From an uncultured beta proteobacterium (GTDB taxonomy: Bacteria > Pseudomonadota > Gammaproteobacteria > Burkholderiales > Casimicrobiaceae), in the NCBI GenBank assembly GCA_963733985.1, contig CAVTFF010000003.1:101619-165618 (forward strand): DNA of 64,000 nucleotides, in the 5' to 3' direction. The position numbers and the translations under genes are program-made. The notes under the pieces were generated by a model. That model was not told where the DNA came from and ran no database searches. It saw only the letters and a program-made list of their open reading frames with translations. Positions 4,789 through 61,300 of this stretch are shown here, in pieces. The first letter of the stretch is position 1, and every line of letters starts with the position of its first letter.

Positions 4789-6830
4789 TTACACCAACTT
4801 TCTTGCGGCGGCGACGACGGCGTCGATGGTGAAGCCGAAGTGGGGGAAGAGGGCGGAGGCGGGGGCGGACTCGCCGAAGGTGTCGAGGCCGAGCACGGCG
4901 GCGTGCGGATCGTCGAGGGCGCCGACATAGGCGCGCCAGCCGGCGGTGGCGCCGGCTTCGATGGCCAGGCGCGGGATCGAAGGCGGCAGCACGCTGGCCC
5001 GCCAGGCGGGGTCCTGGCGCTCGAAGACGCTGGTGCAGGGTAGCGAGACGACGCGCGCGGCAAGGCCGTCCTTTTGGAGCGTGGTGCGGGCGCCCATGGC
5101 CAGCGCCACCTCGGAGCCGGTGGCGAGGAGGACCACCCGGCGGGGGAGGTTGGGCGCGAAGTCGGCGAGCACGTAGCCGCCTTTGGCGATGTCCTGGCAT
5201 TGCGCGGCATCGCGCGGCTGGAAGGGGACGTTCTGGCGGGTCAAGATCAGCGCGGTGGGGCCGTCGGCGCGGGCGATCGCGGCGACCCACGCGGCGGCGG
5301 TCTCCACGGTGTCGCAGGGGCGCCAGACATCGAGGTGCGGAATGAGGCGCAGGCTCGCGGTGTGCTCGACGGCCTGATGGGTGGGGCCGTCCTCGCCCAG
5401 GCCGATCGAGTCGTGGGTGAACACGAAGATCGAGCGCAGCTTCATCAGCGCCGCCATGCGCAGGGCGTTGCGCGCGTAGTCGGAGAAGGTGAGAAAGGTG
5501 CCCACATAGGGGATGAACCCGCCGTGCAGCGCGAGACCGTTGGCGATGGCGCTCATGCCGAACTCGCGCACCCCGAAGTGAACGTAGTTGCCGGCCGTGG
5601 TCTTGGTGACCGGGACGCTGCCGGCCCAGTTGGTGAACACCGAGCCGGTGAGATCGGCGGCGCCGCCGAGGAGCTCGGGCAGCGCCGGACCGAGCGTGTC
5701 GAGCGCCTGCTGCGAGGCCTTGCGGGTGGCCACGCTGGCCGCCTTGGCGGCTTGCGCCGCAACGAGCGCGGCGGCGGTCTCGGGCCAGCTATCCGGCAGC
5801 TCGCCCGCCGATCCGGCGGCTGAACTCCTCTGCTTCCTGCGGATACGCCGCGCGGTAGGCGGCAAAGCGCGTCGCCCACGCCGCTTCCTGTTGCGCGCCG
5901 CGGTCGCGCGCATTCCAGGCTTTTGCAGATCGACTGCCGGAATCACGAACGGCGGATGCGGCCAGCTGAGCGCCACCCGGGTGGCCGCCACTTCCTTCTC
6001 GCCCAGCGCCGCGCCGTGGGTGTCGGCGCTGCCGGCCTTGGTCGGCGCCCCCTTGCCGATCACCGTCTGGCAGCACAACAACTGCGGCCGCGCCTGCTGC
6101 GCCCCGTCGGCCTGCGCCGCCGCCAGCGCCGCCGCCACCGCCGCACGTCGTGACCGTCCACCCGCGCCTGCACGTGCCAGCCGTAGGCTTCGAAGCGCCG
6201 GGCCGTGTCGTCGGTGAACCAGTCCTTGGTCGCGCCGTCGATCGAAATCCCGTTGTCGTCGTAGAAGACGATGAGCTTGCCCAGGCCCAGCGTGCCGGCG
6301 AGCGAGCAGGCTTCGTGCGAAATCCCCTCCATCAGGCAGCCGTCGCCGGCGAAGACATAGGTGTGATGATCGACGATGCTGTGGCCCGGACGGTTGAAGG
6401 TGGCCGCCAGCAGCCGCTCGGCCAGCGCCATCCCCACCGCGTTGGCGAGCCCCTGGCCCAGCGGCCCGGTGGTGGTCTCCACCCCCGGGGTCACCCCCAC
6501 CTCCGGATGCCCCGGCGTTTGCGAGCCCAGTTGCCGAAAGCGCTTGAGCTCCTCCATCGGCAGGTCGTAGCCGGTCAGGTGCAGCAGCGCATAGAGCAGC
6601 ATCGAACCGTGACCGTTGGACAAGACGAAACGATCGCGATCGGGCCAGCGCGGATGCGCCGGATTGTAGCGCAATGGCCCCCGCCACAACGCCAGCGCGA
6701 TCTCCGCCATCCCCATCGGCATCCCCGGATGCCCGCACTTCGCCGCCTCCACCGCATCCATCGCCAACGCCCGGATCGCGTTGGCAAGTTGTGCGGTATC
6801 CGCACCGGCACTGATCGGTTGGTCTTTCAT
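4789..6830 (-). CDS. tkt: transketolase (cbbT-type, last gene of the cbb operon; frame-disrupted)
   Basis: N-terminus: [28 protein letters not shown]...[19 protein letters not shown]...[14 protein letters not shown]...[16 protein letters not shown]-terminal half: [20 protein letters not shown]. Frame changes fall near 6150, 5925 and 5815. Confidence 0.9.
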
Positions 6831-6843
6831 CGCTTCATTCCCT

Positions 6844-7727
6844 TCACATTGTCACCGCGCGCCGCTTGCGATCCATGAGCTGCAGGATCATCGGCGTGAA
6901 GATCAGCTGCATCGCGAGGCTCATCTTGCCGCCCGGCACGACGATGATGTTGGGCCGCGACATGTACGAGTCGTGCAGCATCGACAGCAGGTAGAGGAAG
7001 TCGATCCCCTGCGGCTTCGCGAAACGGATCACGACCATGCTCTCGTCGACGGTCGGGATGTCCTTCGCGATGAACGGGATTCGACGTGTCGACCATCGGC
7101 ACGCGCTGGAAATTGATGTGCGTGTGCGAGAACTGCGGGCAGATGTAATTCACGTAATCGGGCATTCGCCGCAGGATCGTATCGACAACCGCATCCTGCG
7201 AGTAGCCGCGCAGGTTCTGGTCGCGATGCAGCTTCTGGATCCACTCGAGGTTGATGATCGGGACGACGCCGATCAGCAGGTCGGCATGGACGCGCGATGT
7301 TGACCTCGCGGGTCACGGCGGCGCCGTGCAGTCCCTCGTAGAACAGCAGATCGGTGCCGGCGGGAATGTCGGTCCACGGCGTGAAAGTGCCCGGGTCCTG
7401 CTTGAACGGCGCCGCCTCGCGCGCGTCGTGCAGGTATTTGCGCACCTTGCCGGTTCCGCTCTCGCCGTAGGTCCGGAACAGCGTTTCGAGGTCCGGCAGC
7501 AGATTGGCCTCCGGCCCGAAGTGGCTGAAATGCTCGTTGCCGACTGCGCCGGCCTCCGCCATCTTGGCCTTCATCTCCTTGCGGTCGTAGCGATGGAACG
7601 AATCGCCCTCGACGATCGCGGCGGTGATGCCTTCGCGCCGGAAGATGTGCTCGAACGTCCGGGTAACGGTCGTCGTGCCGGCGCCGGACGAGCCGGTGAT
7701 GGCGACGACGGGATGCCGCTTCGACAT
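6844..7727 (-). CDS. cbbP: phosphoribulokinase (frame-disrupted)
   Basis: P-loop [25 protein letters not shown], ...[23 protein letters not shown]..., and C-terminus ...[21 protein letters not shown]. Frame changes near 7285 and 7085. Confidence 0.9.
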
Positions 7728-7745
7728 GCGTTTCCCCTCGTCGAC

Positions 7746-8831
7746 TCAGTTGGTCAGGGTGACGGCGCCGAACAGCGAGCGCTCGTTGAACAGCGGCGAG
7801 GAGAACGCGACCTCGCCGCGATCGTGCTCGGCGTGATAGCGCGCAAGGCGCTCCACTTCGCTCTTCGAGCCGAGGATCACCGGCACACGCTCGTGCAGCG
7901 ACGACGGGACGACGTCGAGAATGCGATCGCGCCCGGTCGATGCGGCGCCGCCCGCCTGCTCGATCAGCATCGCCATCGGGTTCGCCTCGTAGAGCAGGCG
8001 CAGGCGTCCCGGCTTGGCCGGATCCTTCGTGTCCTTCGGATACATGAACAGACCGCCGCGCATCAGGATCCGATGCACTTCGGCGACGAGCGACGCGATC
8101 CAGCGCATGTTGAAATCCTTGCCGCGCGCGCCCGCTCTTGCCGGCGATGCATTCCTCGACGTAGCGCTTGACCGGCGGCTCCCAGAAGCGCTCGTTCGAC
8201 GCGTTGACCGCGAATTCCTGCGTCTCTTCGGCGATTCCGAGGTTCGGATGGGTGAGGATGTACGCGCCGATCTCCGGATCGAGCGTGAAGCCGTGCACGC
8301 CGGTGCCCAGCGTGATCACGATCATCGCCGTCGGTCCGTAAAGCGCGTAGCCGGCGCAGACCTGCTGCGTGCCCGGCTGCAGGAAATCCTCGGCCTTCGG
8401 ATCGGTGACGCCCTTCGGGTGCGCGCAGCACCGAAAAGATCGTGCCGACGGTGACGTTGACGTCGAGGTTCGACGAGCCGTCGAGCGGATCGAATACGAG
8501 CAGATAGCGGCCGCGCGGATACTGCGCCGGGATCGCGTACGGTGCCTCCATTTCCTCGGAGGCCATGCCGGCGAGATAGCCGCCCCATTCGCAGCAGGAG
8601 AGCATGATGTCGTTGGCGATGACGTCGAGATGCTTCTGCTCCTCGCCCTGCACGTTGACGGCGCCGACCCGAGCCGGGCGCGGCGCTGAGCGCACCGCGG
8701 GCGACCGCGCTCGCGATGTACTTGCATGCGGTCTGGATGTCGTTGACCAGCGCGATCAGCTCCGCGCCGCCTTCGAGCTTGCGCTGTTCCTCGATGATGA
8801 ACTTCGACAGCGTCGTGCGACCATAGAACAT
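7746..8831 (-). CDS. fbp: class 1 fructose-1,6-bisphosphatase (frame-disrupted)
   Basis: [18 protein letters not shown]..., metal-binding [56 protein letters not shown]. Frame changes near 8690, 8420 and 8135. Confidence 0.9.
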
Positions 8832-22383: not shown

Positions 22384-24134
22384 CGCGGCCGCGCACGCCC
22401 TGCGCGGAACGGCGGCGCCCGCGCCGGCGCTGACGACGCTGCCGCGATTCCGCGCGCCGCTCGTGTTCGGTGGGCTCGCGCTGCTGTTCGCCGTGCTCGC
22501 GCTGCGCGTCGCTGTATCTGCAATGGATCGACAACGCGTTTCCTCCAGGAGCAGGGAAGCTCGCGCTACAGCCGCGAGATCGAGGTCCCCGCGCACCGCG
22601 GCCGCATCGTCGACCGCGAGGGCGAGCCGCTCGCGATCTCGACGCCGGTGAAATCGCTGTGGGCATTTCCGGCGCAAGTCGAGGCGACGCCGGGCCAGCT
22701 CGCGCAACTCGCGAAGATTCTCGAGCTCCCGACGCAGGCGCTCGCGCGGAAGCTCGATCGCGCAGGAGGACTTCACGTTCGTCGCCAAGCAGGTGTCGCC
22801 GGAGACCGCAGAGCGGGTGATGGCGCTCGGGATCAAGGGCCTGCACGACCAGAACGAATACCGGCGTTACTACCCCGCCGGCGAATCGATGAGCCACATC
22901 CTGGGCTTCACCGGCGACCACGACGTAGGGCAGGAAGGGATCGAGCTCTCTCAGCAGGCATGGCTCGGCGGGATTCCCGGCAGCCGCCGCGTCATCATCA
23001 ACCGCCGCGGCGACGTGGTCGAGGACGTCGAGGCGATCCGCGCGCCACAGGCCGGCCGCGACCTGGCCCTTGCGATCGACACCCGTCTGCAGTACATCGC
23101 GTTTCGCGAGCTCAAGTCGGCGATCGAGGCAAACCGGGCGAGGGCCGGCGGGCTCGTGATCCTCGATGCGCAGACCGGGGAAATTCTTGCGCTCGCGAAC
23201 TGGCCGACCTACAACCCGAACGCGCGCAACCGTGCGGCTGCGCGAGAAGATGCGCAATCGCGCGCTGACCGACGTGTTCGAGCCGGGATCGACGTTGAAG
23301 CCGTTCACGATCGCCGCGGCACTCGAGGCGGGCACGGATTCGTCCCGACACGGTGATCCAGACGGCGCCCGGCACGCTGACGATCGGTGCCGCGACGATC
23401 CACGACGCGCACGTCAACGGCGCGCTGACCGTCGAGCAGGTGATCCAGAAGTCGTCGAACGTCGGCGCCGCGAAGATCGCACTGTCGCTGCCGCCGGAGA
23501 CGATGTGGCACATGTTTTCCGAGTGCGGGTTCGGTAGTCCGCCGAAGACCGGCTTTCCCGGCGAGGTGGCCGGAAGGCTGCGTCCGGCGAAAACCTGGCG
23601 GCCGATCGAGCAGGCGACGATGGCCTACGGGCACGGCATCTCGGTCAACCTCGTCCAGCTCGCGCGCGCCTACACAGTGTTCGCCGACAACGGTGAACTG
23701 AAGCCCGCTGACGTTGTTCAAAACTGCGGCGGCCGGTCGCGGGCCGCCCCGTCATCAAGCCCGAAACGGCCGCCGCGGTACGCAGGATGCTCGAGATGGC
23801 CGTCATGCCGGGCGGCACCGCGCCCAAGGCGCAGGTGCCCGGCTATCGCGTCGCCGGCAAGACGGGAACCGCGCACAAGCTCGAGGGTCGCGTCTACAGC
23901 AACAAGTACGTGTCGTCGTTCGTCGGATTCGCGCCGGCTTCCAACCCGCGGCTCGTGATCGCGGTGATGATCGATGAGCCTAGCGCCGGCGTCTACTACG
24001 GTGGCGAGGTCGCGGCGCCGGTTTTCTCGGCGGTGACAGGGGCCGCGCTGCGGATGCTGGGCGTCCCCGCCGAGGCGCCCGTCGACAACGTGATCCTTCC
24101 GCCGGAAGGTAGCCGGATCGACGAGGAAACCTGA
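22380..24134 (+). CDS. ftsI: peptidoglycan D,D-transpeptidase FtsI / PBP3 (heavily frame-disrupted)
   Basis: TM LVFGGLALLFAVLALR, RGRIVDREGEPLA, SxxK EPGSTLKP, SSN (KSSNVG), KTGT (AGKTGTA). About 8 frame changes between 22420 and 23760. Confidence 0.9.
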
Positions 24135-25623
24135 TGGCGAGCCTGGCGAGTCACGCGGTCGACGTGCCGGCATTGCTGGCGCGCCTCGGTGAGCGCCCGC
24201 AGCGGATCACAGGCGACAGCCGTCAGGTACGACCGGGCGACGCCTTCGCTGCTTTCCCGGGGACGAAAGCCGACGGCCGCAAGTTCATCGCCGACGCGAT
24301 CGCGCGCGGCGCGTGCGCCGCGCTGTGGGAAGCGCAAGGTTTCCGGTGGAATCCTGATTGGCATGTCGCCAACCACCCGGTCGAGAATCTCCAGGGGAAA
24401 CTCGGTGCGATCGCCGATTTCATCTACGGCAGCCCCTCGCAGGCGCTGTGGATGGTGGGCGTCACCGGCACCAACGGCAAGACTTCGTGCTCGCAGTGGA
24501 TCGCGCAATGCCTCGATCGCTACGGCCGCCGCGCGGCGGTCATCGGCACGCTGGGCAACGGCCTCGTCGGGCGCGCTCGCGACCGCGCACACATACGACG
24601 CCCGACGCCGCGCGCGTGCACGAAATGCTCGCGAGCTACAAGACGGCGGGCGCGCTCGCGGTGGCGATGGAGGTATCGTCGCACGGGCTCGATCAAGGGC
24701 GCGTCAACGGCGTCGCGTTCGACATCGCGATGTTCACGAATCTGACGCGTGACCACCTCGACTACCACGGAACGATGGCGGCCTACGGGGCGGCGAAGGC
24801 GAAGCTCTTCGCCTGGCCGGGACTCCATGCGTCGGTGATCAACGTCGATGATCCGTTCGGCCAGAGCCTCGCCGACGGCGCGAAGGCGCGCGGGCGCGAG
24901 GTGCTCACGTACGGTCTTGCCAATGCGGAGGTCACGGCGACCGCGTTGGCGACTACCACGCAAGGCATCGCGTTGTCGGTGGCGACGCCGCGGGGCCGCG
25001 GCGACGTGCAGACGAAACTCGTCGGCGCCTTCAATGCAGTCAATGTGCTCGGGTGTCTTGCGCGTGCTGCTCGCAAGCGAGGTGCCGCTCGCGGATGCTC
25101 TGGCCGCGCTTGCGCTCGTCGTCCCGCCGCCGGGTCGGATGGAGCGGCTCGGAGGCGGTGACAAAGCGCTCGTCGTCATCGACTACGCGCACTCGCCCGA
25201 TGCGCTGGAGAAGGTGCTGACCGCCCTGCGGCCGGCCGTGGCCGAGGGCGGCGAGCTCGTCTGCGTGTTCGGTTGCGGCGGCGACCGCGACGCGGGCAAA
25301 CGGCCGGAAATGGGCCGCATCGCCGCGGCGCTCTCCGAACGCGTGATCGTCACCAGCGACAATCCGCGCAACCGAGGATCCCGCCGCCATCGCGAGCGCA
25401 ATCGTCCGCGGCATTCGCGAGTCGGGAAGCCGGCACTGGACCGTCGATCTCGATCGCGCGACTGCGATCAACGCGGCGATCTCGGCGCACCGGCCCCGGC
25501 GACGTCGTGCTGATCGCCGGCAAGGGCCACGAGGATTACCAGGAAGTGAATGGCGTCCGGACCCATCTTTTCCGACGCGCGAGACGGCCGCGGCTGCGAT
25601 CAAGGGCCGGAGCGCGCGCATGA
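24134..25623 (+). CDS. murE: UDP-N-acetylmuramoyl-L-alanyl-D-glutamate--2,6-diaminopimelate ligase (frame-disrupted)
   Basis: GVTGTNGKTS, MEVSSHGL, FTNLTRDHLDYHG, VFGCGGDRD, TSDNPR, LIAGKGHEDYQ. About 4-5 frame changes. The 3' end is approximate. Confidence 0.9.
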
Positions 25624-27003
25624 TGGACACCGCAACCGCCGCCCGCGCTGTCGCTGGCAACGTGCACGGTGCGAACGTTCGCTTTCTGCGCGTGACGACC
25701 GATACGCGCGGGCTCGTTCCCGGCGATCTCTTCGTCGCGTTGAAGGGCGAGCACTTCGACGGCCACGATTTCGTCGCGGCGGCGCAGGCGCGCGGTGCGA
25801 GCGCGGCCCTGGTCGCGGCCGACCGCGCCTTCGAGTTTCAGGGCAACCTGATCGCCGCGCCGGATCCGCTTGCGGCGCTGGGCGCGCTCGCCGCGCACTG
25901 GCGCACGCAGTTCGCGATTCCCGTCATCGTCATCGCCGGCAGCAACGGCAAGACGACGGTCAAGGAGATGCTGCGCCGCCGTCCTGCGCCGTCACTACGG
26001 TGCCGATGCCGTGCTCGCGACGGCGGGCAATTTCAACAACGCGATCGGCTTGCCGCTGACGCTCCTGTCGCTCCGCGCTCCGCACCGCGTCGCCGCGATC
26101 GAGCTCGGGATGAACCATCGCGGCGAGACGGCAGCGCTCGCGGCGATCGCGCAGACCGACCGTCGCGCTCATCAACAACGCGCAGCGCGAGCACCAGGAA
26201 TTCATGGTGAGCATCGCAGACGTCGCCGCCGAGCACGCCGATCTGATCCGTGCGCTTCTTCCGGGTGGCGTGGCGGTCATCAATGCCGACGATGCGTTTG
26301 TCGACGTCTGGCGCGACGCGGCGCGCGACGGCGAGCGCGTCGGCGCAGTCGAATTCGGGCTCGACCATCCGGCGGCGGTGCGTGGACGCTACACGACGAG
26401 CGATGTCGGCGGGACGCTCGAAGTCGACCACGCCCGCGGGCGATGCAACGATCGCGCTGGCCGCGCAGGGCCGGCACAACGCAAGCAATGCACTCGCGGC
26501 GACGACCGCGGCACTCGCCATCGGCGTGCCGCTCGCCGCGGTCGTCGGCGGCCTCGAATCATTCCGGCCGATCGGCGGGCGGCTCACGGTGACGCGAGCG
26601 GCGAGCGGCGCCGCCGTGATCGACGATACGTACAACGCAAACCCGGATTCGGTGCGCGCCGCGATCGACGTCCTGGCGGGCGCGCCGTCGCCGAAATGGC
26701 TGGTGCTGGGGGACATGGGGGAAGTCGGCGCGCAAGGACCGGCGTTCCACCGCGAGGCGGGCGCCTATGCGCGCGAGCGCGGCATCGATCGACTGCTCAC
26801 GACCGGTACGCTCGCCGCGGACGCTGCCGCGGCATTCGGCGCCGGCGCGGAGCATTTTGCGACGCTCGAAGCGCTGCGCCGATCATCTGACGGCCGGCGC
26901 GCGGGCAGGAACGACCGTTCTGGTGAAGGGCTCGCGCTTCATGCGGATGGAACGCGTCGTCGCCGCGCTCGCCGGCCGTAGCGCGGTCGAGGGAGCGCAC
27001 TGA
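25620..27003 (+). CDS. murF: UDP-N-acetylmuramoyl-tripeptide--D-alanyl-D-alanine ligase (frame-disrupted)
   Basis: [84 protein letters not shown]. About 4 frame changes. The stop overlaps the mraY ATG. Confidence 0.9.
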
Positions 27004-28168
27004 TGCTCCTCTTTCTCGCCGATCTCCTCGCGAAGGACGTACGCGCGTTCAACGTCTTCGGCTACCTGACGCTGCGCGCGGTGCTGGCGTGCATGACCGC
27101 GCTTTTCATCTCGTTCATCGTCGGGCCCGCGGATGATCGCGTGGCTCTCGCGAATGAAGATCGGCCAGGCGGTGCGCGACGACGGTCCGCAGACGCATCT
27201 CGCGAAGGCGGGAACGCCGACGATGGGCGGCGCGCTGATTCTGGTGTCGATCGCGGTCACGACGCTGCTGTGGGGCGATCTCGCCAACCGCTTCGTGTGG
27301 GTCGTGCTGCTCGTAACGCTGGGCTACGGCGCGATCGGCTGGATCGACGACTACCGGAAGGTCGCACGTCGCAATCCGAAGGGGCTCTCCGCGCGCTCGA
27401 AATTCCTCTGGCAGTCGGTGATCGGTCTCGTCGCCGCCCTGTATCTCGCGTTCTCGGTGTCGGCTCCCGACAACACCCAGCTGCAGCGACTGTTCTTCGC
27501 ATGGATAGGCAGCGGCTTCAACGTCAACCTTTCGCCGAAGACCGACTTGATCGTGCCGTTCTTCAAGACCGTTTCGTATCCGCTCGGCATCTGGGGCTTC
27601 ATCGCGCTCACCTACTGCGTGATCGTCGGCACCAGCAATGCCGTCAACCTGACCGATGGGCTCGACGGGCTTGCGATCATGCCGACGGTGATGATCGGCG
27701 CGGCGCTCGGCATCTTCGCCTACGTGAGCGGCAATGCGATTTTCGCGCGCTACCTGCAGTTTCCGCTCATTCCCGGCGCCGGCGAGCTGGCCGTGATCTG
27801 CGGCGCGCTGGCCGGCGCCGGGCTGGGCTTCCTCTGGTTCAACGCGTATCCGGCCGAAGTGTTCATGGGCGACGTCGGCGCGCTGTCGCTCGGCGCGGCG
27901 CTGGGGACGATGGCCGTGATCGTGCGCCAGGAGATCGTGCTGTTCATCATGGGCGGCGTGTTCGTCGTCGAGACGCTGTCGGTGATGATCCAGGTTGCGT
28001 CGTTCAAGCTCACCGGCAAACGCGTGTTCCGGATGGCGCCGATCCACCATCACTACGAATTGAAAGGCTGGAAGGAGAACCAGGTGGTGGTGCGGTTCTG
28101 GATCATCACGATGCTGCTCGTCCTGTTCGGTCTTCGAGCGCTGCTCGACGCTGACAGCTGGCGCATGA
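27003..28168 (+). CDS. mraY: phospho-N-acetylmuramoyl-pentapeptide transferase (frame-disrupted)
   Basis: [51 protein letters not shown]. Frame change near 27130. The ORF as printed runs to 28257, but a third frame gives ...STLTAGA and a stop at 28166-28168, which fits MraY C-termini better. The 3' end is therefore uncertain. Confidence 0.85.
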
Positions 28169-28245
28169 ACGGCCCCACGCTCACTGCGTTCGCTGCCCCC
28201 GAGGGGGCGCCCAGTGCCCCTTCGGGCGGCCGGGCGGGCACTGAG
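28165..28245 (+). repeat. structured intergenic repeat, family A copy 1 (mraY stop to murD start)
   Basis: 5' module ATGAACGGCCCCACGCTC; hairpin GCCCCC-GA-GGGGGC (28195-28208); second stem CAGTGCCC (28212-28219) / GGGCACTG (28236-28243). The same modules occur at 45781-45928. Confidence 0.75.
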
Positions 28246-28257
28246 ATGGACTATTAG

Positions 28258-29646
28258 ATGGACTTTCGGGCGCAACGTCGTCGTGCTCGGGCTCGGGCTT
28301 ACCGGGTTCTCGCTCGCGCGCCATCTCGCGGCGCGCGGCGCGACGGTGCGTGTCGCCGATACGCGGGCGGCGCCGCCTTTCGCCGACCGGCTCCAGGCGA
28401 AGCTGCCCGGCGTGTCGGTGACGACGGGCTCCTTCACCGAGGCGACGTTTGCCGGCGCGGACATGATCGCCATCAGTCCCGGCGTCGCCAAGGATGGCCG
28501 GAAATCGACGCGGCGGTCGCGCGCGGCGCCGAGCTCGTCGGCGACATCGAGCTCTTCGCGCGCGTCGCTGCCGGCGACCCAGAACGTGCTCGCGATCACC
28601 GGATCGAACGGCAAGACGACGGTGACCGCGCTGACGGGGGCACTCGTCCGCGCCGCAGGGCTCGACGACGATCGTCGCCGGCAACATCGGCGACGCGGTG
28701 CTCGACGCGCTGCCACGCGGCGGCATCTGGCCGGACGTGTTCGTGCTCGAGCTGTCGAGCTTCCAGCTGGAGACGACGGCGGCGCTCGCGCCGGTCGCGG
28801 CGACGGTGTCTGAACGTCAGCGAGAACCATCTCGATCGCTACGCGCGGCATCGACGACTACGCGGCCGCGAAGGCGCGGATCTTCGGAAGGGGCGGCATC
28901 CAGGTGCTCAATCGCGACGATCCGCGCTCGCTCGCGATGCGCATTCCCGGGCGTCTCGTGCAGACATTCGGCGCGGGATCGCCGGAATCCGAAGAGTCGT
29001 GGGGTCTCGTCGATCGCGCCGGCAACGGCCGTGACGTGTGGCTCGCCCGGGGCAGCGCGCTCCTGTTGCCGGTCGCCGATCTCGAGCTCGTCGGGTCGGC
29101 ACAATGCGATTGAACGCGCTTGCGGCGCTCGCGCTCGCGTCGGCCGTGACGCCCGTCAAGCGCGACGCCCTCGCGGCGCTCGCCCGCTTCGAGGGCCTGC
29201 CGCATCGAATGCAGCGGATCGCGGAAGCGGGCGGCGTCCTCTACGTCGACGACTCGAAGGGCACGACGGTCGCCGCGACGCAGGCCGCGCTCGACGGACT
29301 CGAGCGGCCCGTGGTGCTGATCGCGGGCGGCGACGGAAAGGGACAGGACTTCTCGCCGCTCCGCACGGCGGTCGACGCCCGTTGCCGCGCGGTACTGCTG
29401 ATCGGCCGCGACGCGCCGGCAATCGAGCGCGCGCTCGCCGGATCGCGCGCCGAAGTCGAGCAGCTCGGGGACGCTCGACGCGGCGGTGGTGCGTGCGTTC
29501 GAGCTCGCGAAGCCCGGTGACGCGGTGCGTCCTGTCCCCGGCGTGCGCGAGCCTCGACCAGTTCGAGAACTATGTCGAGCGCGGTCGAACGCTTCGTCGC
29601 GAAGGTTCGCGCCCATCTCGCGCTGGAGACGACGCCGCATGCGTGA
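28258..29646 (+). CDS. murD: UDP-N-acetylmuramoylalanine--D-glutamate ligase (heavily frame-disrupted)
   Basis: MDF(R)[87 protein letters not shown]. About 9 frame changes, the first immediately after the start codon. Confidence 0.85.
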
Positions 29647-30883
29647 CGGGATCGCCGCGATCGCGACGCGAGAGCCCAGGGGCTTGCCGGCGGCGGCCGG
29701 TTCGCTCTTCGCGCTGCCGCGTCATCCGCGGACGATGCTCGCTTACGACGCCTCGCTCGCTTGGGCGACGCTGCTGCTCCTTGCCGCGGGCGTCGTGATG
29801 GTCTATTCGGCGTCCATCGCGAGCGCCGAAGCGTCGTCGCATACCGGCTTTCACGCGTGGTATTTCCTGCTGCGGCATGCGATTTTCGTGGCTGCGGGCC
29901 TCGCCGCCGCGCTGGTCGCGTTCCAGATACCGATGAAAGCCTGGCAGCACGCGGCCCCGTGGCTGTTCGGTGCAGCGTTCGTGCTGCTCGTGCTGGTGCT
30001 GGTGCCGGGTATCGGCCGGTCCGTCAACGGCAGCCGCCGCTGGCTGTCGCTCGTCGTCATCAATCTGCAGCCATCGGAACTGATGAAGCTCGCCGTTGTC
30101 CTGTACGCGGCAAGCTACGCGGTGCGCAAGGCCGCCTTCCTGCATGCGCAACAGCCGTTGAAGCAGACGCTGCTGCGCGGCTTCCTGCCGCTGTTCGCGG
30201 TGATGATGGCAACCGGCGCCTTGTTGCTCCTCGAGCCGGACTTCGGCGCGTTCGTCGTCATCGTCGCGATTGCCTTCGCGATCCTGTTCCTGGGGGGTCT
30301 CGACTGGCGACTCTTCCTCGGGCTTCTGCTGTTGCTGCCGCTCGGTCTGTCCGCGATCCTGGTTGCAGCGCCGTACCGGCTGCAGCGGCTCGTCGCATTT
30401 CTCGATCCGTGGTCCGATCCTTTCGGCAAGGGCTATCAGCTTTCGCACTCGCTGATCGCCTTCGGGCGCGGCGAATGGCTCGGGGTGGGCTTGGGCGCGA
30501 GCGTCGAAAAGCTCCTGTACCTGCCGGAGGCGCACACCGATTTCCTGCTCGCCGTGATCGCGGAGGAACTGGGCTTCGCGGGCGTACTCGCGATCCTTGG
30601 CCTTTTCGTCTGGCTCCTCTTTCGCGCGTACGCGATCGGACGGCAGGCGGCGCGGCTCGAGCGTTCGTTCGCGGCGCTGGTCGCGCTTGGCATCGGAATC
30701 TGGATCGGTGTGCAGGCGCTGATCAACATCGGCGTCAACATGGGAATGTTGCCGACGAAGGGACTCACGCTGCCGCTCCTGTCGTTCGGCGGATCGGGGA
30801 TCGTCGCCAACTGCGTCGCAATCGCGATCCTCATGCGGGTCGATTACGAGAATCGACGATTGCTGCGGGGATTTGCGGTATGA
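29639..30883 (+). CDS. ftsW: peptidoglycan glycosyltransferase FtsW (SEDS family)
   Basis: Intact, multi-[61 protein letters not shown]. The ATG overlaps the murD stop region. Confidence 0.9.
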
Positions 30884-30914
30884 GCGCCCTCCCGCTGCGA
30901 CGAGGTGCAGGCGC

Positions 30915-32000
30915 ATGACCGGCACCGTGATGATCACGACGGGCGGCACCGGGGGCCACGTGTTTCCCGGGCTCGCGGTCGCGGCGAAGCTGATCGCGCG
31001 CGACTGGCGCGTCTTCTGGGTGGGCTCGAAGGGCGGCATGGAGGCGAGGCTCGTCGTGCAGCACAAAATCGCCTTCGAGGGCATTTCGTTCGGAGGCATC
31101 CGCGGCAAGGGGCTGCGCCAACTCGTGCTCGGGCCGCTCGCGCTTCTCGCAGCGTGCGGGCAAAGCCTGAAGATCATTCGCCGCCGGGCACCCGATGTCG
31201 TACTCGGGTTCGGGGGATTCGCATCGTTTCCCGGCGCGCTGATGGGCGTGGCGGCGGCGAAGCCACTCGTGCTGCACGAAGCCAATGCGATCGCGGGCCT
31301 TGCGAATCGAGTCCTCGCTTACGGCGCCGACCGCATCCTCGTCGGCTTTCCCGACGCCTTCGCAGGTCGCCACGCGGCGAAAATCGAGTGGGTCGGCAAC
31401 CCGCTGCGCGACGCGATCTCCCGCGTGCCGCCGCCCGAAACGCGATTCGCGGGGCGCACCGGCCCGCTGCGGTTGCTGGTCGTGGGCGGAAGTCTCGGCG
31501 CCGTCGGTTTGAACGAGCGCGTGCCGGCGGCGCTTTCGCTGCTGCCGCCGACGGCGCGCCCGCGGGTCGTCCATCAGGCGGGCGAAAAGCACATCGACGC
31601 GTTGCGAGAGGCGTACGCGGCTGCCGGCGTCGACGCCGAGTGCATTCCGTTCATCGACGACATCGCCTCCCGCTACGCCGAGGCCGACGTCGCGCTCTGT
31701 CGCGGCGGCGCGATGACGATCGCGGAGCTTGCGGCGGCCGGCGTTGCCGCGATCGTCGTACCGCTGCCGGGTGCGATCGCCGACGAGCAGAGCGCCAATG
31801 CGGCGTTTCTCGTGAATGCCGGCGCCGCGGTACGGATTGCGCAGGCCGAGCTCACGCCGCAACGCCTCGCCGAGCGGCTTTCGTCGCTCACTCGCGAAAC
31901 GCTCCTCGCGATGGCGACCGCCGCCCGCCGCGTCGGCCGCCGGGACGCCGCGGATCGCGTCGCCGACGCGTGCATTGCGCTGGGGACGAAGGTGCGATGA
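30915..32000 (+). CDS. murG: undecaprenyldiphospho-muramoylpentapeptide beta-N-acetylglucosaminyltransferase
   Basis: Intact. [44 protein letters not shown]. The start is chosen at Met 30915 of ORF 30873..32000. Confidence 0.9.
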
Positions 32001-44549: not shown

Positions 44550-45779
44550 ATGCCGGTTCGATACACGCCGCCGCGCCCCGAGGATCTGTTGCCCGTTCCC
44601 GGTGTCACGCTCGGTACCGCGGCCGCCAAAATCAAGAATTGGACGCGCGACGACGTGCTGCTTGTTGCGTTCGACGAGGGCACGGTCGCCGCGGGCGTGT
44701 TCACGCAGAACCGGTTCTGCGCGGCACCGGTGACGGTTTGCCGCCGGCATCTCGCGGACCTCGGCTCGCGTCCGCGCGTTCGTCGTGAATGCCGGCAATG
44801 CGAATGCGGGGACCGGCGAGCAAGGGCTGGCCGACGCCGAAGCAACGTGTGCGGGTGTGGCTTCGCTGCTGGGCTGCGCCGCGCACGACGTGCTGCCGTT
44901 CTCGACGGGCGTGATCATGGAGCCGCTGCCGGTTGCGAAGATCATCGTTGCGTTACCGGCGGCGAAGGCGGCGCTCGCGCAAGATCACTGGTTCGCTGCG
45001 GTCTCGTCGATCATGACGACCGATACGGTGCCGAAGGGTGCTTCGCGACGGGCGGCGGTGGGCGGCGTTCCCGTTACCGTTACCGGAATCGCGAAGGGCG
45101 CCGGCATGATCCACCCGGACATGGCGACGATGCTCGCGTTCGTTGCCACCGACGCGCCGATCGCCGCCGATTTGCTCGAGACCCTCACCCGCGAAATCGC
45201 CGACGCATCGTTCAACCGCGCCACCGTCGATGGCGACACGTCCACCAACGATAGCTTTGTCATTGCCGCGACAGGCACGGCGGCGCTCGCCCCGATCGTG
45301 CGCGCCGACGATGCGCGCCTTGGACCGATCCGTGCCGCGCTCACCGATGTCGCGACCGAGCTCGCCCAGGCGATCGTCCGCGATGGCGAAGGCGCGACCA
45401 AGTTCATCACGATCGCGGTCGAGGGGGGCGTGACGCCGTCGAATGCCGGACGATCGCGCTTCGCATCGCCCATTCGCCGCTGGTGAAGACGGCATTCTTC
45501 GCGTCGGATCCGAATCTCGGCCGGATCGTCTGCGCGATCGGCAACGCCGCGCCGGCCGATCTCGATTCGGCGCGGGTCTCATTCTGGCTCGACGACGTGC
45601 TCGTCGTCGACCATGGCGGTCGCGCGCCGTCGTATCGCGAGGAGGACGGAGCGCGCGTGATGAAAGCCGACGAGATCGCGGTACGCGTCGACCTGGGACG
45701 CGGCGCCGCTCGCGCGACTGTCTGGACGTGCGATTTTTCGCATGATTACGTGAGCATCAACGCGGACTATCGGAGCTAG
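44550..45779 (+). CDS. argJ: bifunctional glutamate N-acetyltransferase / amino-acid acetyltransferase ArgJ (frame-disrupted)
   Basis: [21 protein letters not shown], autoprocessing region [28 protein letters not shown], and C-terminus [11 protein letters not shown]. Frame changes near 44770 and 45440. Confidence 0.9.
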
Positions 45780-45780
45780 T

Positions 45781-45928
45781 ATGAAACGGCCCCCACGCTC
45801 GCTTTGTGCGGCTGCGCCGCATCCCGCTTCGCGGGACCAGCCTCCAGCTGTCCTGCGGCCTTCGGCCTTGTGCTCGCTGCCCCCGGAGGGGGCGCGTCAG
45901 TCCCTTGGGACGGCCCGGCGGGACTGAC
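45781..45928 (+). repeat. structured intergenic repeat, family A copy 2 (argJ stop to next ATG)
   Basis: 5' module ATGAAACGGCCCCCACGCTC; about 67 nt of extra internal sequence; hairpin GCCCCC-GGA-GGGGGC (45879-45893); stem GTCAGTCCC (45896-45904) / GGGACTGAC (45920-45928) abutting ATG 45929. Confidence 0.75.
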
Positions 45929-46831
45929 ATGCTTTCGGTTGCCGACCTGACCGCGCTCCTCGCGCGCCTCGAACGAATCCTCGAGCGCGTCGAAGCCGTG
46001 CTGCCGCCCGCGCCACCGGCGCCCGACTGGAATGCGCACGCGTTCCGCTGGCGCAAGCGCGCCGGGCGCGGCTATCTGCAGGCGGTTGCGCACCCGCACG
46101 CGATCCGGCTCTCCGACCTCGTTGCGATCGATGCCCAGAAACATGCAATCGACGCCAACACGCGTCAGTTCGTCGCCGGTTTGCCGGCGAACAACGTCCT
46201 CTTGACCGGCTCGCGGGGCACAGGCAAGTCCTCGCTCGTCAAGGCGATGCTCGTCAAGTACGCGGCAAAGGGGCTGCGTCTCATCGAAGTGGACAAGGCC
46301 GATATGGTCGACCTGCCGGACATCGCCGAGCAGGTTGCGCACCGACGCGAGCGCTTCATCATCTTCTGCGACGACCTCACGTTCGACTCGGGAGAGCCGG
46401 GATACAAGGCGCTCAAGGTGATGCTCGACGGCACGGTCGCCGCGGCGTCGCCGAACATGCTGATCTACGCGACGTCGAACCGCCGGCATCTGCTCCCGGA
46501 ATACATGAGCGAGAATCTCGAAACCCGGCACATCGGCGAGGAAGTGCATCCCGGCGAGTCGGTCGAGGAGAAGATCTCGCTGTCCGAGCGCTTCGGGCTC
46601 TGGATCTCGTTCTATCCGTTCAGCCAGGACGACTATCTTGCGGCGGTGGCGAGCTGGCTCGACGTGTTCGGCGTCGGTGCGGCGAAGTCCAAGGGCGACG
46701 CGACCGCACGCACTCGCGATGCGCTCCAATTCGCCTTGCAGCGCGGTTCGCGCAGCGGTCGCATCGCCTGGCAGTTCGCGAAGAGCTACGCCGGCGCGGC
46801 GGCGCTGAGACGCAGGTTGCCCGCGGCGTGA
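45929..46831 (+). CDS. DUF815-type P-loop ATPase, hypothetical
   Basis: Intact from Met 45929. Walker A LLTGSRGTGKSSLVKA, Walker B-like RFIIFCDDLTF. The family name is from memory. Confidence 0.65.
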   Translation: MLSVADLTALLARLERILERVEAVLPPAPPAPDWNAHAFRWRKRAGRGYLQAVAHPHAIRLSDLVAIDAQKHAIDANTRQFVAGLPANNVLLTGSRGTGKSSLVKAMLVKYAAKGLRLIEVDKADMVDLPDIAEQVAHRRERFIIFCDDLTFDSGEPGYKALKVMLDGTVAAASPNMLIYATSNRRHLLPEYMSENLETRHIGEEVHPGESVEEKISLSERFGLWISFYPFSQDDYLAAVASWLDVFGVGAAKSKGDATARTRDALQFALQRGSRSGRIAWQFAKSYAGAAALRRRLPAA

Positions 46832-60688: not shown

Positions 60689-61195
60689 ATGAACATCATC
60701 GAAACGCTCGAGAAGGAAGAAATCGCGCGGCTGGGCAAGACGATCCCCGAGTTCGCGCCCGGGGATACCGTCATCGTCAACGTCAACGTCGTCGAAGGCG
60801 AGCGCAAGCGCGTCCAGGCCTACGAAGGCGTCGTGATCGCCAAGCGCAATCGCGGCCTCAACTCCTCGTTCATCGTGCGCAAGATCTCGAGCGGCGAAGG
60901 CGTCGAGCGCACGTTCCAGACCTATTCGCCGCTGATCGCGTCGATCGAGGTCAAGCGCAAGGGCGACGTGCGGCGCGCGAAGCTCTATTACCTGCGCGAC
61001 CGCTCCGGCAAGTCGGCGCGGATCCGCGAAAAGCTCGCCCATACGCACGCGAAAAGCAGGGCGAGTAAGCGAGCCGGCCGAAGGCCAGGCGCGAAGCGCG
61101 CGTCGGCGAGCGACCGAGCGCGGCCGACGAAACGGCATAACGCGCAACGCCAAATGTGCGGAGGCCGCGGTGTGAGCACTTCGGGCGAGCGCTAG
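60689..61195 (+). CDS. rplS: 50S ribosomal protein L19 (ORF as printed carries about 40 extra C-terminal residues read from a repeat)
   Basis: [116 protein letters not shown]. After this the frame runs on to 61195. An out-of-frame TAA at 61066-61068 is the more plausible true end if there is one more indel. Confidence 0.88.
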
Positions 61196-61300
61196 CGAGC
61201 CCAGGCCCGCAGCGCGTCGGCGAGCGACCGAGCGCGGCCGGCAAGACGGCATAACGCGCAACGCCAAAACTGCGGAGGAAGCGAGCGGTGGCGAACCGTG
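61066..61300 (+). repeat. tandem family B-related repeat downstream of rplS
   Basis: Two units start TAAGCGAGCC (61066) and TAGCGAGCC (61193). A 67-nt core, GCGCGTCGGCGAGCGACCGAGCGCGGCCG...ACGGCATAACGCGCAACGCCAAA..TGCGGAGG, occurs at 61098-61164 and again at 61212-61278 (offset 114 nt, 5 mismatches by my count). Confidence 0.8.

Follow-up and report, generated by a model that had tools for sequence, protein, structure and literature searches.

Mycobacterial interspersed repetitive units (MIRUs) are repeats that are regarded as mobile and as limiting the damage they do, in that translational coupling is preserved (Supply et al. 1997, cited in PMC12548453). They are described there as units of 40–100 bp, single or in direct tandem arrays, which lie mostly in sense between the cistrons of operons, and whose internal open reading frame (ORF) overlaps or abuts the stop of the preceding gene and the start of the following one, in many cases with a spacing of –4 (PMC12548453). 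In the present work, a short structured repeat of comparable layout was analysed in a 64 000-nt stretch of DNA from an uncultured betaproteobacterium of the Casimicrobiaceae (GenBank assembly GCA_963733985.1, contig CAVTFF010000003.1, positions 101 619–165 618 of the forward strand). This whole stretch is called the window, and coordinates refer to it unless a locus is named. The window holds exactly two copies of the repeat, one at 28165–28245 between mraY and murD and the other at 45781–45928 between argJ and a DUF815 ATPase gene, both in sense to the flanking genes. They belong to an apparently undescribed betaproteobacterial family, which is dispersed and variably present, prefers stop/start junctions and the sense orientation, and has an excess of ORFs running from junction to junction. 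The repeat is probably a non-autonomous, selfish structured element of ∼75–90 nt, whose ORF would act as a relay that keeps translational coupling in a MIRU-like manner.

The element shares with MIRUs the unit size, the occurrence as single copies or direct arrays, the intercistronic position in operons (its sense orientation is not absolute) and the way in which its ORF meets the neighbouring stop and start codons. The two occur in different phyla, and the likeness is one of functional class, sequence homology being neither compared nor expected. To our knowledge, MIRUs are not noted for strong dyad symmetry, whereas the present element is dominated by three hairpins, shows covariation and is also found antisense and within genes.

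Repetitive extragenic palindromic (REP) sequences and the composites known as bacterial interspersed mosaic elements (BIMEs) and REP doublets forming hairpins (REPINs) are likewise short GC-rich imperfect palindromes just past stop codons, with compensatory stem changes, dispersal and a presence that varies between relatives. The element differs from them in its length (∼80 nt), its three different hairpins, its conserved unpaired box and its start and stop codons, and it forms direct tandem arrays instead of inverted doublets. Its core is near-identical across several families while its copy number in Burkholderia is low, and no REP-associated tyrosine transposase (RAYT) was found nearby in the 8-kb stretches examined. 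Box A and the hairpins P2 and P3 (described below) are present, but the unit is a composite of three hairpins, in which no GTAG- or CGTC-type REP tag was identified.

Rickettsia palindromic elements (RPEs), reportedly described by Ogata and colleagues in 2000, are said to be palindromic repeats able to sit in frame inside genes. In-frame residence in coding genes was also observed here; however, most copies of the present element are intergenic at stop/start junctions, and lineage and sequence are unrelated. With the palindrome-associated transposable elements (PATEs) derived from IS200/IS605 insertion sequences, the element has in common the lack of terminal inverted repeats, hairpins near the ends and insertion beside a short specific sequence. 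IS200/IS605 elements use guide–target pairing, and a possible base pairing between a 'guide' in the element and its target is a resemblance alone. Unlike the case of PATEs, no TnpA partner was identified for this element, and junction-like sequence lies on both of its sides. In the element, REP-like hairpins are joined to a MIRU-like relay ORF, and occasionally it resides in frame in genes in the manner of RPEs.

Two insertions in the window

With a GC content of 67%, the window represents a betaproteobacterial segment in which the dcw cluster is followed by secA, argJ and the DUF815 gene. Its top protein matches (94–95% identity) were located on long-read metagenome contigs and on one JGI contig. 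When 24003–31002 was compared with the contig of a relative (JGI, L003), approximately one indel per 150 nt was observed, mostly 1-nt insertions in the window. The frames of mraY, murD, murE, argJ and secA were broken by indels, many essential genes being affected; split genes were also seen in the nearest long-read metagenome contigs (L001 and L004). As the window is indel-ridden, fine details of copy 1 (mraY–murD) and arguments from homopolymer lengths or single indels are unsafe. The indels also explain why the pair of copies was missed by a gapless repeat finder run on the window.

A structured repeat had been proposed at these two sites in a first-pass annotation made from the sequence alone, and the spacers and the strings that it quoted were present there. 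The 3′ modules of both spacers were joined by local alignment, and the 5′ modules matched too. The shared core GCTGCCCC(N0–5)GGGGCG occurred exactly twice in 64 kb, against 0.03 occurrences expected. A covariance model built from 96 family members recovered both copies (Table 1), and the third-best match in the 64-kb window reached only 14.8 bits.

Relatives with flanking proteins 92–95% identical were found to be without either spacer. At mraY–murD, L003 reads TGAcgATG and L004 has an overlapping TGATG. At argJ–DUF815, L001, L127 and L128 read AGCTGACATG (AGC TGA C ATG), and L126, L129 and L130 have spacers of 9–11 nt; the argJ stop in relatives lacking the element is TGA, or TAA in L129 and L130. 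The existence of relatives without the spacer at both sites implies that both copies are insertions. That they are, and that they are members of a dispersed structured repeat family, we regard as practically certain. In L002 (2904–3000), a different 94-nt spacer was observed at argJ–DUF815, which has the same edges, TAGTGT...GGGACCTGACATG, and a 3′ part resembling a degenerate P3; judged from its sequence, it probably represents the decayed remains of this insertion at the same point.

Extent and consensus of the family

The repeat was found to have many further copies. An exact-pattern scan of species-representative genomes with TCGCTGCCCCC-N1–2-AGGGGGCGC yielded at least 119 loci, and nearly all of the matches listed were Betaproteobacteria. 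Among the matches listed were Variovorax, Polaromonas, Acidovorax, Hydrogenophaga, Ramlibacter and other Comamonadaceae, Casimicrobiaceae and Rhodocyclaceae, and also Burkholderia guangdongensis, Trinickia and Verticiella; the carriers included isolates and Illumina assemblies. A BLAST search against plasmid and chromid records gave 14 further records with 1–3 copies per replicon, from Burkholderia, Paraburkholderia, Variovorax, Acidovorax, Rhodoferax and Azoarcus, and in these records the element was almost never annotated as a feature of its own. On 100 fetched loci, the covariance model detected 121 copies, ∼20 of which were beyond the seeds.

No match to the element was found in the phage collection searched. 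Rfam gave no gathering-score match in the window or in 16 copy-bearing loci, chance-level matches alone appearing at E ≤ 5, in agreement with the first-pass impression that this is not a described riboregulator. Pfam and NCBIfam had no matches for eight element peptides. No open-access paper was found that quotes the motifs of the element or describes such a repeat of Burkholderiales, which is not proof of novelty.

The unit is 75–91 nt long, and direct tandem arrays of 2–4 units with a period of 78–91 nt were present at L019, L114, L016, L011, L083, L120, L099, L112 and L066. The consensus of the family alignment (A1) consists, from 5′ to 3′, of an ATG(A) 0–12 nt upstream, box A (G)CCCCCACGCTC, hairpin P1, TCGCTGCCCCCCGAGGGGGCGC (hairpin P2), a variable arm, C(C)TTGGGGCGGCCCGGCGG, the complementary arm (the two arms forming hairpin P3) and often TGA(N)ATG. 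Box A is conserved and unpaired. P2 is a near-invariant GCuGCCCCC-CGA-GGGGGCGC, with C6-GA-G5 as its true core.

At several loci (L032, L048, L080, L086 and L123; L041, L078 and L118), box A, P1 and P2 were kept but the 3′ hairpin module was different, the alternative modules being TGCGCCTGCGG...CCGCGGC or GCGGACCGGCG..GCCGGATCCGC. From these sequences the family appears to be modular.

Conserved hairpins and covariation

P3 is a hairpin of 13–14 bp, in which the lower 7–9 pairs take all four Watson–Crick types at most positions. Its upper part is conserved (consensus TTSGG-GCGG-CCSGG) with G:C→C:G and G:C→A:U exchanges; TTGGG/CCCGG versus TTCGG/CCGGG represents a compensatory G:C→C:G exchange across the family. 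The lower stem differs between subfamilies yet stays paired. In alignment A1, 87.9% of the cells were paired, compared with 74.8% after shuffling (0 of 500 shuffles reached the observed value) and 42–50% with slid partners, and the compensatory cells numbered 366 compared with 132 after shuffling. In the model-fitted alignment, the paired cells amounted to 91.5%, against 72.8% in the shuffled control. P1 is a variable hairpin of 2–6 bp whose closing pair (16–37) covaries (AU 32, GC 21, CG 16). These results demonstrated selection for base pairing in hairpins P1 and P3. The near-invariance of P2 was due partly to the construction of the search, but it was also observed in 17 copies outside the pattern selection.

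The GCCCCC/GGGGGC hairpin named in the first-pass annotation corresponds to P2, and its distal helix (CAGTGCCC/GGGCACTG in copy 1; CAGTCCC/GGGACTG in copy 2, at argJ–DUF815) is the lower stem of P3. This stem covaried strongly, and in the larger alignment P3 was far above both the shuffled and the slid controls. A proximal pairing of the same 5′ arm had been put forward as a mutually exclusive helix preserved in both copies. It did not hold up: 56.8% of the cells paired, against 57.2% after shuffling and up to 74.7% with slid partners. Moreover, the loop closed by this pairing in copy 2 would be 2 nt long, the bases used are those of the conserved upper P3, and this specific pair of exclusive helices was without support in the family. 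The idea of selection on structure was thus borne out by family-wide covariation, but not by the paired indels of two copies from which it had been argued. Those are unsafe, and since copy 1 and copy 2 come from separate subfamilies, what distinguishes them cannot be read as single compensatory events.

A different alternative fold was noted, in which GCUGCCCC (the P2 5′ strand) can pair with GGGGCGGC (the P3 apex) in 86–96 of 96 copies. Single-sequence minimum-energy folds often chose this pairing, and the inner helix of the extended fold paired poorly. Because the P2 5′ strand and the P3 apex never vary, covariation can neither back nor exclude it. A pseudoknot between box A and the P3 apex was also considered and was rejected, as the TTCGG variants of P3 in A1 had no matching changes in box A.

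At two conserved T·G positions in the upper P3, 143 G·T were counted versus 13 A·C, favouring the top (sense) strand; single-sequence folding energies were similar for both strands. This asymmetry points weakly to structure at the RNA level. No promoter-like or terminator-like signal was found at either window copy, and P3 was followed by TGA(N)ATG without a T-run.

Operon position and the proposed relay ORF

The coding strand and frame of the flanks were deduced from third-position GC periodicity. Between co-directional genes, 54 copies were sense and 13 antisense, the remaining copies being located between convergent or divergent genes or beside weakly periodic flanks. As had been noticed in the two window spacers, the element begins at or overlapping the upstream stop and ends 1–2 nt before an ATG. 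An ATG was present no more than 14 nt 5′ of box A in 40 of the 44 fully parsed sense copies, and in 25 of the 44 an ORF spanned the element and stopped –3 to +10 nt from the end of P3. The expectation under a random ATG frame was 13.7, and a value of 25 was reached in 0 of 200 000 simulations. No antisense copy (0/7) had a spanning ORF. The relay ORFs comprised 24–31 codons in the family and 75–96 nt among the 25 spanning copies.

The ORF stop was spaced at –4 (ATGA) from the downstream in-frame start in nine copies, at –1 (TGATG) in four and at +1 in six. Similarly, the ATG of the element was at –4 (ATGA) from the upstream stop in nine copies, at –1 in none and at 0 to +4 in ten. Among the 25 spanning copies, 24 different segment-length combinations were found; descent from a single master copy therefore does not suffice to account for the in-frame property. 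The conserved core was read in all three frames (22, 10 and 4 copies), and therefore no peptide is conserved. What recurs is the open frame itself and not a peptide.

A GGAG-like motif was located 4–16 nt upstream of the next start in 14 of the 33 sense copies with a nearby start, thus within or just past the P3 3′ arm, and in several aligned copies GGAGG in this arm paired with CCTCC in the 5′ arm. Occlusion of the ribosome-binding site by the distal arm, as envisaged in the first-pass annotation, is plausible in view of these 14 copies; nevertheless, as the family usually carries an ORF by which ribosomes could pass through the hairpins and halt at the next start, the net effect to be expected would be preserved coupling, not blockage.

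Copy 2 is a textbook case of the stop-to-start layout. The argJ TAG is followed by one base and the ATG at 45781, and the TGA of the ORF by one base and the DUF815 ATG at 45929 (Table 1). Its ORF shares reading frame and peptide with the 26-codon units of L019 and with Azoarcus L131. The P1 region is 66 nt (22 codons) longer than in the L019 units, so that the frame is kept. In L019 itself, four 78-nt units constitute one 104-codon ORF ending in TGAcATG. On plasmid 3 of Variovorax sp. PBL-E5, the element separates an ABC substrate-binding gene from the permease gene that belongs to it; the element ORF extends from ATG 2501 to TGA 2587, and the RefSeq permease start is at 2589. Azoarcus sp. KH32C exhibits ATGA overlaps with annotated genes at both element ends. 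In Paraburkholderia largidicola (AP028202, L134, 1794–2150), the annotated sdhE (SDH assembly factor 2) begins at the ATG of the element, by which 29 element-encoded codons are added, while in relatives without the element sdhE starts at the ATG after TGA-G.

Copy 1 belongs to the TTCGG subfamily (L025, L125). Its junction, TGAGATG, also stands ahead of the RefSeq start of the permease gene in Variovorax L125. In the assembly, mraY runs up to copy 1 without meeting an in-frame stop. The box A of copy 1 has C4 and that of the most similar family copy, L025, has C5 like the family consensus, the model alignment being without a gap; P2 of copy 1 has C5 versus C6 in the family.

Several copies were also observed inside protein-coding genes. 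In L047 (gene 6668–7924, element 7216–7297), a FemAB_like domain (PF04339) was split at profile positions 168/169 by ∼28 element-encoded residues (VAPTLDTGVSSLPPEGARFALGLPGGET), and in L030 (Acidovorax) this gene carried a copy at the identical position. Further in-frame copies inside protein-coding genes were found in L046 and L057. Of the ∼83 copies whose flanks were clearly coding, the screen by third-position GC periodicity suggested that 5 lay in frame within a gene in sense and 8 in antisense.

Insertion site and ends

Filled and empty sites were compared in four cases from finished Burkholderia and Paraburkholderia replicons. The empty site of B. arboris, GGAGC GCTGACATG ATC, corresponds in B. 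cenocepacia to the filled GGAGC GCTGACATG (74 nt) GCTGACATG ATC. In P. caribensis, MWAP64 (empty) has CGC TGA C ATG and MBA4 (filled) has CGC TGA (AATGAAAC...GGAC TGA) C ATG. At sdhB–sdhE of P. largidicola, the empty form is GTC TGA G ATG and the filled form GTC TGA (ATGATTAA...GTAC TGA) C ATG. The fourth site is GGAGCAAGAC ATGATG when empty (B. cenocepacia, Ralstonia), and its boundaries in the filled B. stagnalis were unclear. The insertion was located at the TGA of a CTGA-N-ATG junction in three of the four comparisons and also at the second window site (AGC/TGACATG).

After insertion, a stop-plus-ATG junction is present on each side of the element, and the two are identical (9 nt) in just one of the four pairs. 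These flanking junctions may be a short target duplication, or element-borne ends that recombined with a look-alike target. A left end TAG(G/T)ATGAAACGA was shared by window copy 2, L019, L034, L101 and L052, and L017 has TAGATGAAACGA without the spacer base; these recurrent TAG left ends suggest that the 5′ stop plus ATG belong to the element. The ends, ATGAAAC...CCCCCACGC versus ...GGGACTGACAT, showed no terminal inverted repeats, and the combination of such repeats with a target-site duplication of fixed length, by which miniature inverted-repeat transposable elements are recognised, was not found. Three inverted pairs, 0.3–1.6 kb apart, were seen among the 121 model matches, and adjacent copies were direct repeats. 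No transposase was found between the two inverted pairs examined, which enclosed an amidase and a DctM permease instead.

Proposed mode of action and alternative explanations

The favoured explanation of the element as a selfish insertion with a relay ORF may be pictured as follows. Ribosomes ending the upstream gene would restart at the ATG of the element or read straight on. They would translate through the hairpins, melting them, and would stop either on the start codon of the next gene or 1 nt ahead of it. Since termination would take place at the downstream start, the translational coupling of the operon would survive the insertion. The peptide of the relay ORF would be irrelevant, and the hairpins together with the conserved boxes (box A, P2 and the P3 apex) would presumably be recognised by mobilising or host machinery. 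Such an element would do hardly any harm to compact operons, in line with what has been proposed for the MIRUs of mycobacteria. Taken by itself, this coupling mechanism is given somewhat better than an even chance.

A number of observations weigh against it. GC-rich sequence is naturally poor in stop codons, and the ATG/TGA architecture could partly be a by-product of the duplication of the target junction, not a selected trait. No neatly spanning ORF was present in 19 of the 44 sense copies, and about a fifth of the copies between co-directional genes were antisense. Approximately 16% of the copies with clear coding flanks appeared to be intragenic, implying that the ORF is not obligatory. 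The ORF of copy 1, starting at ATG 28165, misses the TGA at 28242, enters murD in frame at ATG 28247 and ends at TAG 28255. If box A had one more C, like that of L025, TGA 28242 would fall in frame, and the resulting ORF of 26 codons would stop 1 nt short of the murD ATG. Read-through into murD as assembled would also not be absurd, as the ORF of the P. largidicola element likewise enters sdhE in frame. Finally, it is unusual for a merely selfish repeat that box A, P2 and the P3 apex hardly vary across a whole order, at 1–3 copies per Burkholderia replicon; conservation at such low copy number hints at a further function or a recognition partner.

Such a partner is part of another explanation, which we hold tentatively and consider rather unlikely. 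Here the element would be a site-specific cassette that homes to TGA-N-ATG stop/start junctions, possibly through pairing of the P3 5′ arm (GTCAG...) with the target CTGAC. It would constitute a portable coupling module with its own stop, start and relay ORF and, in some subfamilies, a sequestered Shine–Dalgarno sequence, and box A, P2 and the P3 apex would bind a mobilising enzyme or a host factor conserved across Betaproteobacteria.

It is unlikely that the element is of the REP/REPIN type, with hairpins serving as sites for a RAYT or an IS200/IS605-like single-strand transposase, RNA effects being secondary and the ORF incidental. In its favour are the GC-rich imperfect hairpins with a bulge, the conserved 5′ single-stranded box, stems that covary as reported for REPINs, the lack of terminal inverted repeats, and extragenic, dispersed copies whose presence varies between close relatives; the complementarity of the P3 5′ arm to the target CTGAC recalls the guide–target pairing of IS200/IS605. 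However, the copies were single or in direct arrays, not in the inverted doublets typical of REPINs and BIMEs, and the genes flanked by the two examined inverted pairs were no transposases. Nor would this explanation predict that spanning ORFs are in excess among sense copies alone, and REP sequences are normally lineage-specific, whereas the present core is common to several families.

A cis-regulatory RNA switch, in which exclusive helices gate the ribosome-binding site of murD and of the DUF815 gene, is very improbable. C-runs and G-runs do permit alternative folds, including the pairing of the P2 5′ strand with the P3 apex, and the P3 3′ arm abuts the start codon. Nevertheless, the proximal helix failed in the family, and the other alternative involves invariant bases alone, so no backing by covariation is possible. 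The copies occur in either orientation at junctions of many unrelated genes, and some lie within genes, which does not suit a ligand- or signal-specific regulator and disagrees with the gene-specific riboregulator that the first-pass annotation had in mind; close relatives manage without the element at both window sites.

That the element is a small protein gene with a functional product is largely refuted. ATG-to-stop ORFs of 24–48 codons span many copies, but the core is read in different frames in different copies, and the variation tracks base pairing, not codons. No family was matched in Pfam or NCBIfam, and the product of the copy 2 ORF shares three 5-residue words with none of the proteins in a collection of 5.8 billion. 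An artefact of a noisy long-read contig, to which the many indels of the window and two odd 10-nt duplications flanking copy 1 might point, or an intrinsic terminator can be dismissed for the element as such. Finished RefSeq replicons, genomes of isolates and Illumina assemblies contain it too, P3 has no T-run behind it, and scanning for terminators gave nothing; the base-level details of copy 1 alone remain doubtful.

If the selfish element with a relay ORF is confirmed, it would be a second independent case, in another phylum and with another architecture, of a rare strategy by which mobile DNA settles in the most confined places of bacterial genomes, overlapping stop/start junctions, with a relay ORF of its own. 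The family would offer many natural insertions for the study of termination–reinitiation and of ribosomes at very stable hairpins. For annotation, it is relevant that the elements are either unannotated or absorbed as false N-terminal extensions, for example of sdhE in P. largidicola, and that in-frame copies within genes add ∼28 residues to proteins. The tandem arrays could serve as variable-number strain markers in Burkholderiales, as MIRUs do in mycobacteria.

Features of the two copies and other repeats in the window

The features of both copies are compiled in Table 1.

Table 1. Coordinates of the two copies of the repeat and of their parts in the window
Feature	Position	Strand	Remark
Copy 1 of the repeat, between mraY and murD	28165..28245	+	model match 28170–28244, 59.0 bits
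5′ ATG of copy 1, overlapping TGA 28166–28168; starts the element ORF	28165..28167	+	
Box A of copy 1, GGCCCCACGCTC	28171..28182	+	columns at least 90% conserved in alignment A1
P1 of copy 1, short form AC-TGC-GT	28183..28189	+	
P2 hairpin of copy 1, GCtGCCCCC-GA-GGGGGCGC	28192..28210	+	family form: C6, CGA loop
P3 of copy 1: lower stem CAGTGCCC/GGGCACTG, extra C, upper TTCGG-GCGG-CCGGG, bulged C	28212..28243	+	
TGA-G-ATG junction: 3′ stop of the element, then murD start ATGGACTAT	28242..28249	+	
Copy 2 of the repeat, between argJ and DUF815 ATPase gene	45781..45928	+	model match 45857–45928, 59.8 bits
argJ TAG stop at left edge of copy 2	45777..45779	+	
Relay ORF of copy 2, 48 codons, MKRPPRSL...SLPPEGARQSLGTARRD	45781..45927	+	
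Box A of copy 2, GGCCCCCACGCTC	45788..45800	+	
Expanded P1 region of copy 2: GC...GC around several small GC hairpins	45801..45873	+	
P2 of copy 2, GCtGCCCCC-GGA-GGGGGCGC	45876..45895	+	one substitution versus consensus
P3 of copy 2: GTCAGTCCC-TTGGG-ACGG-CCCGG-C-GGGACTGAC	45896..45928	+	3′ arm holds TGA 45925–45927

Copy 1 is flanked at 28134–28143 and 28258–28267 by imperfect tandem duplications of ∼10 nt (TCGAGCGCTG and ATGGACTTTC), which fall within the final codons of mraY and the opening codons of murD and are absent from relatives. In 7 kb compared with L003, no other such insertion was found except the element and a 35-nt insertion at 30885, and none of this 10-nt type was evident beside copy 2 on reading the sequence. 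The duplications may have arisen by misassembly near a strong hairpin, or they may be an insertion footprint.

The 35-nt insertion is located between ftsW and murG (30880–30918); L003 is without it, its two genes overlapping by ATGA. It creates a 12-codon ORF (ATG AGC GCC ... GCA TGA), of which the ATG overlaps the ftsW stop and the TGA overlaps the murG ATG. It is a second relay insertion at an ATGA junction, unrelated-looking to the repeat family.

A 72-nt direct repeat (61098–61169 and 61212–61283, 90% identical, 114 nt spacing) was also present in the window; it lies in a non-coding-looking stretch and is unrelated to the family.

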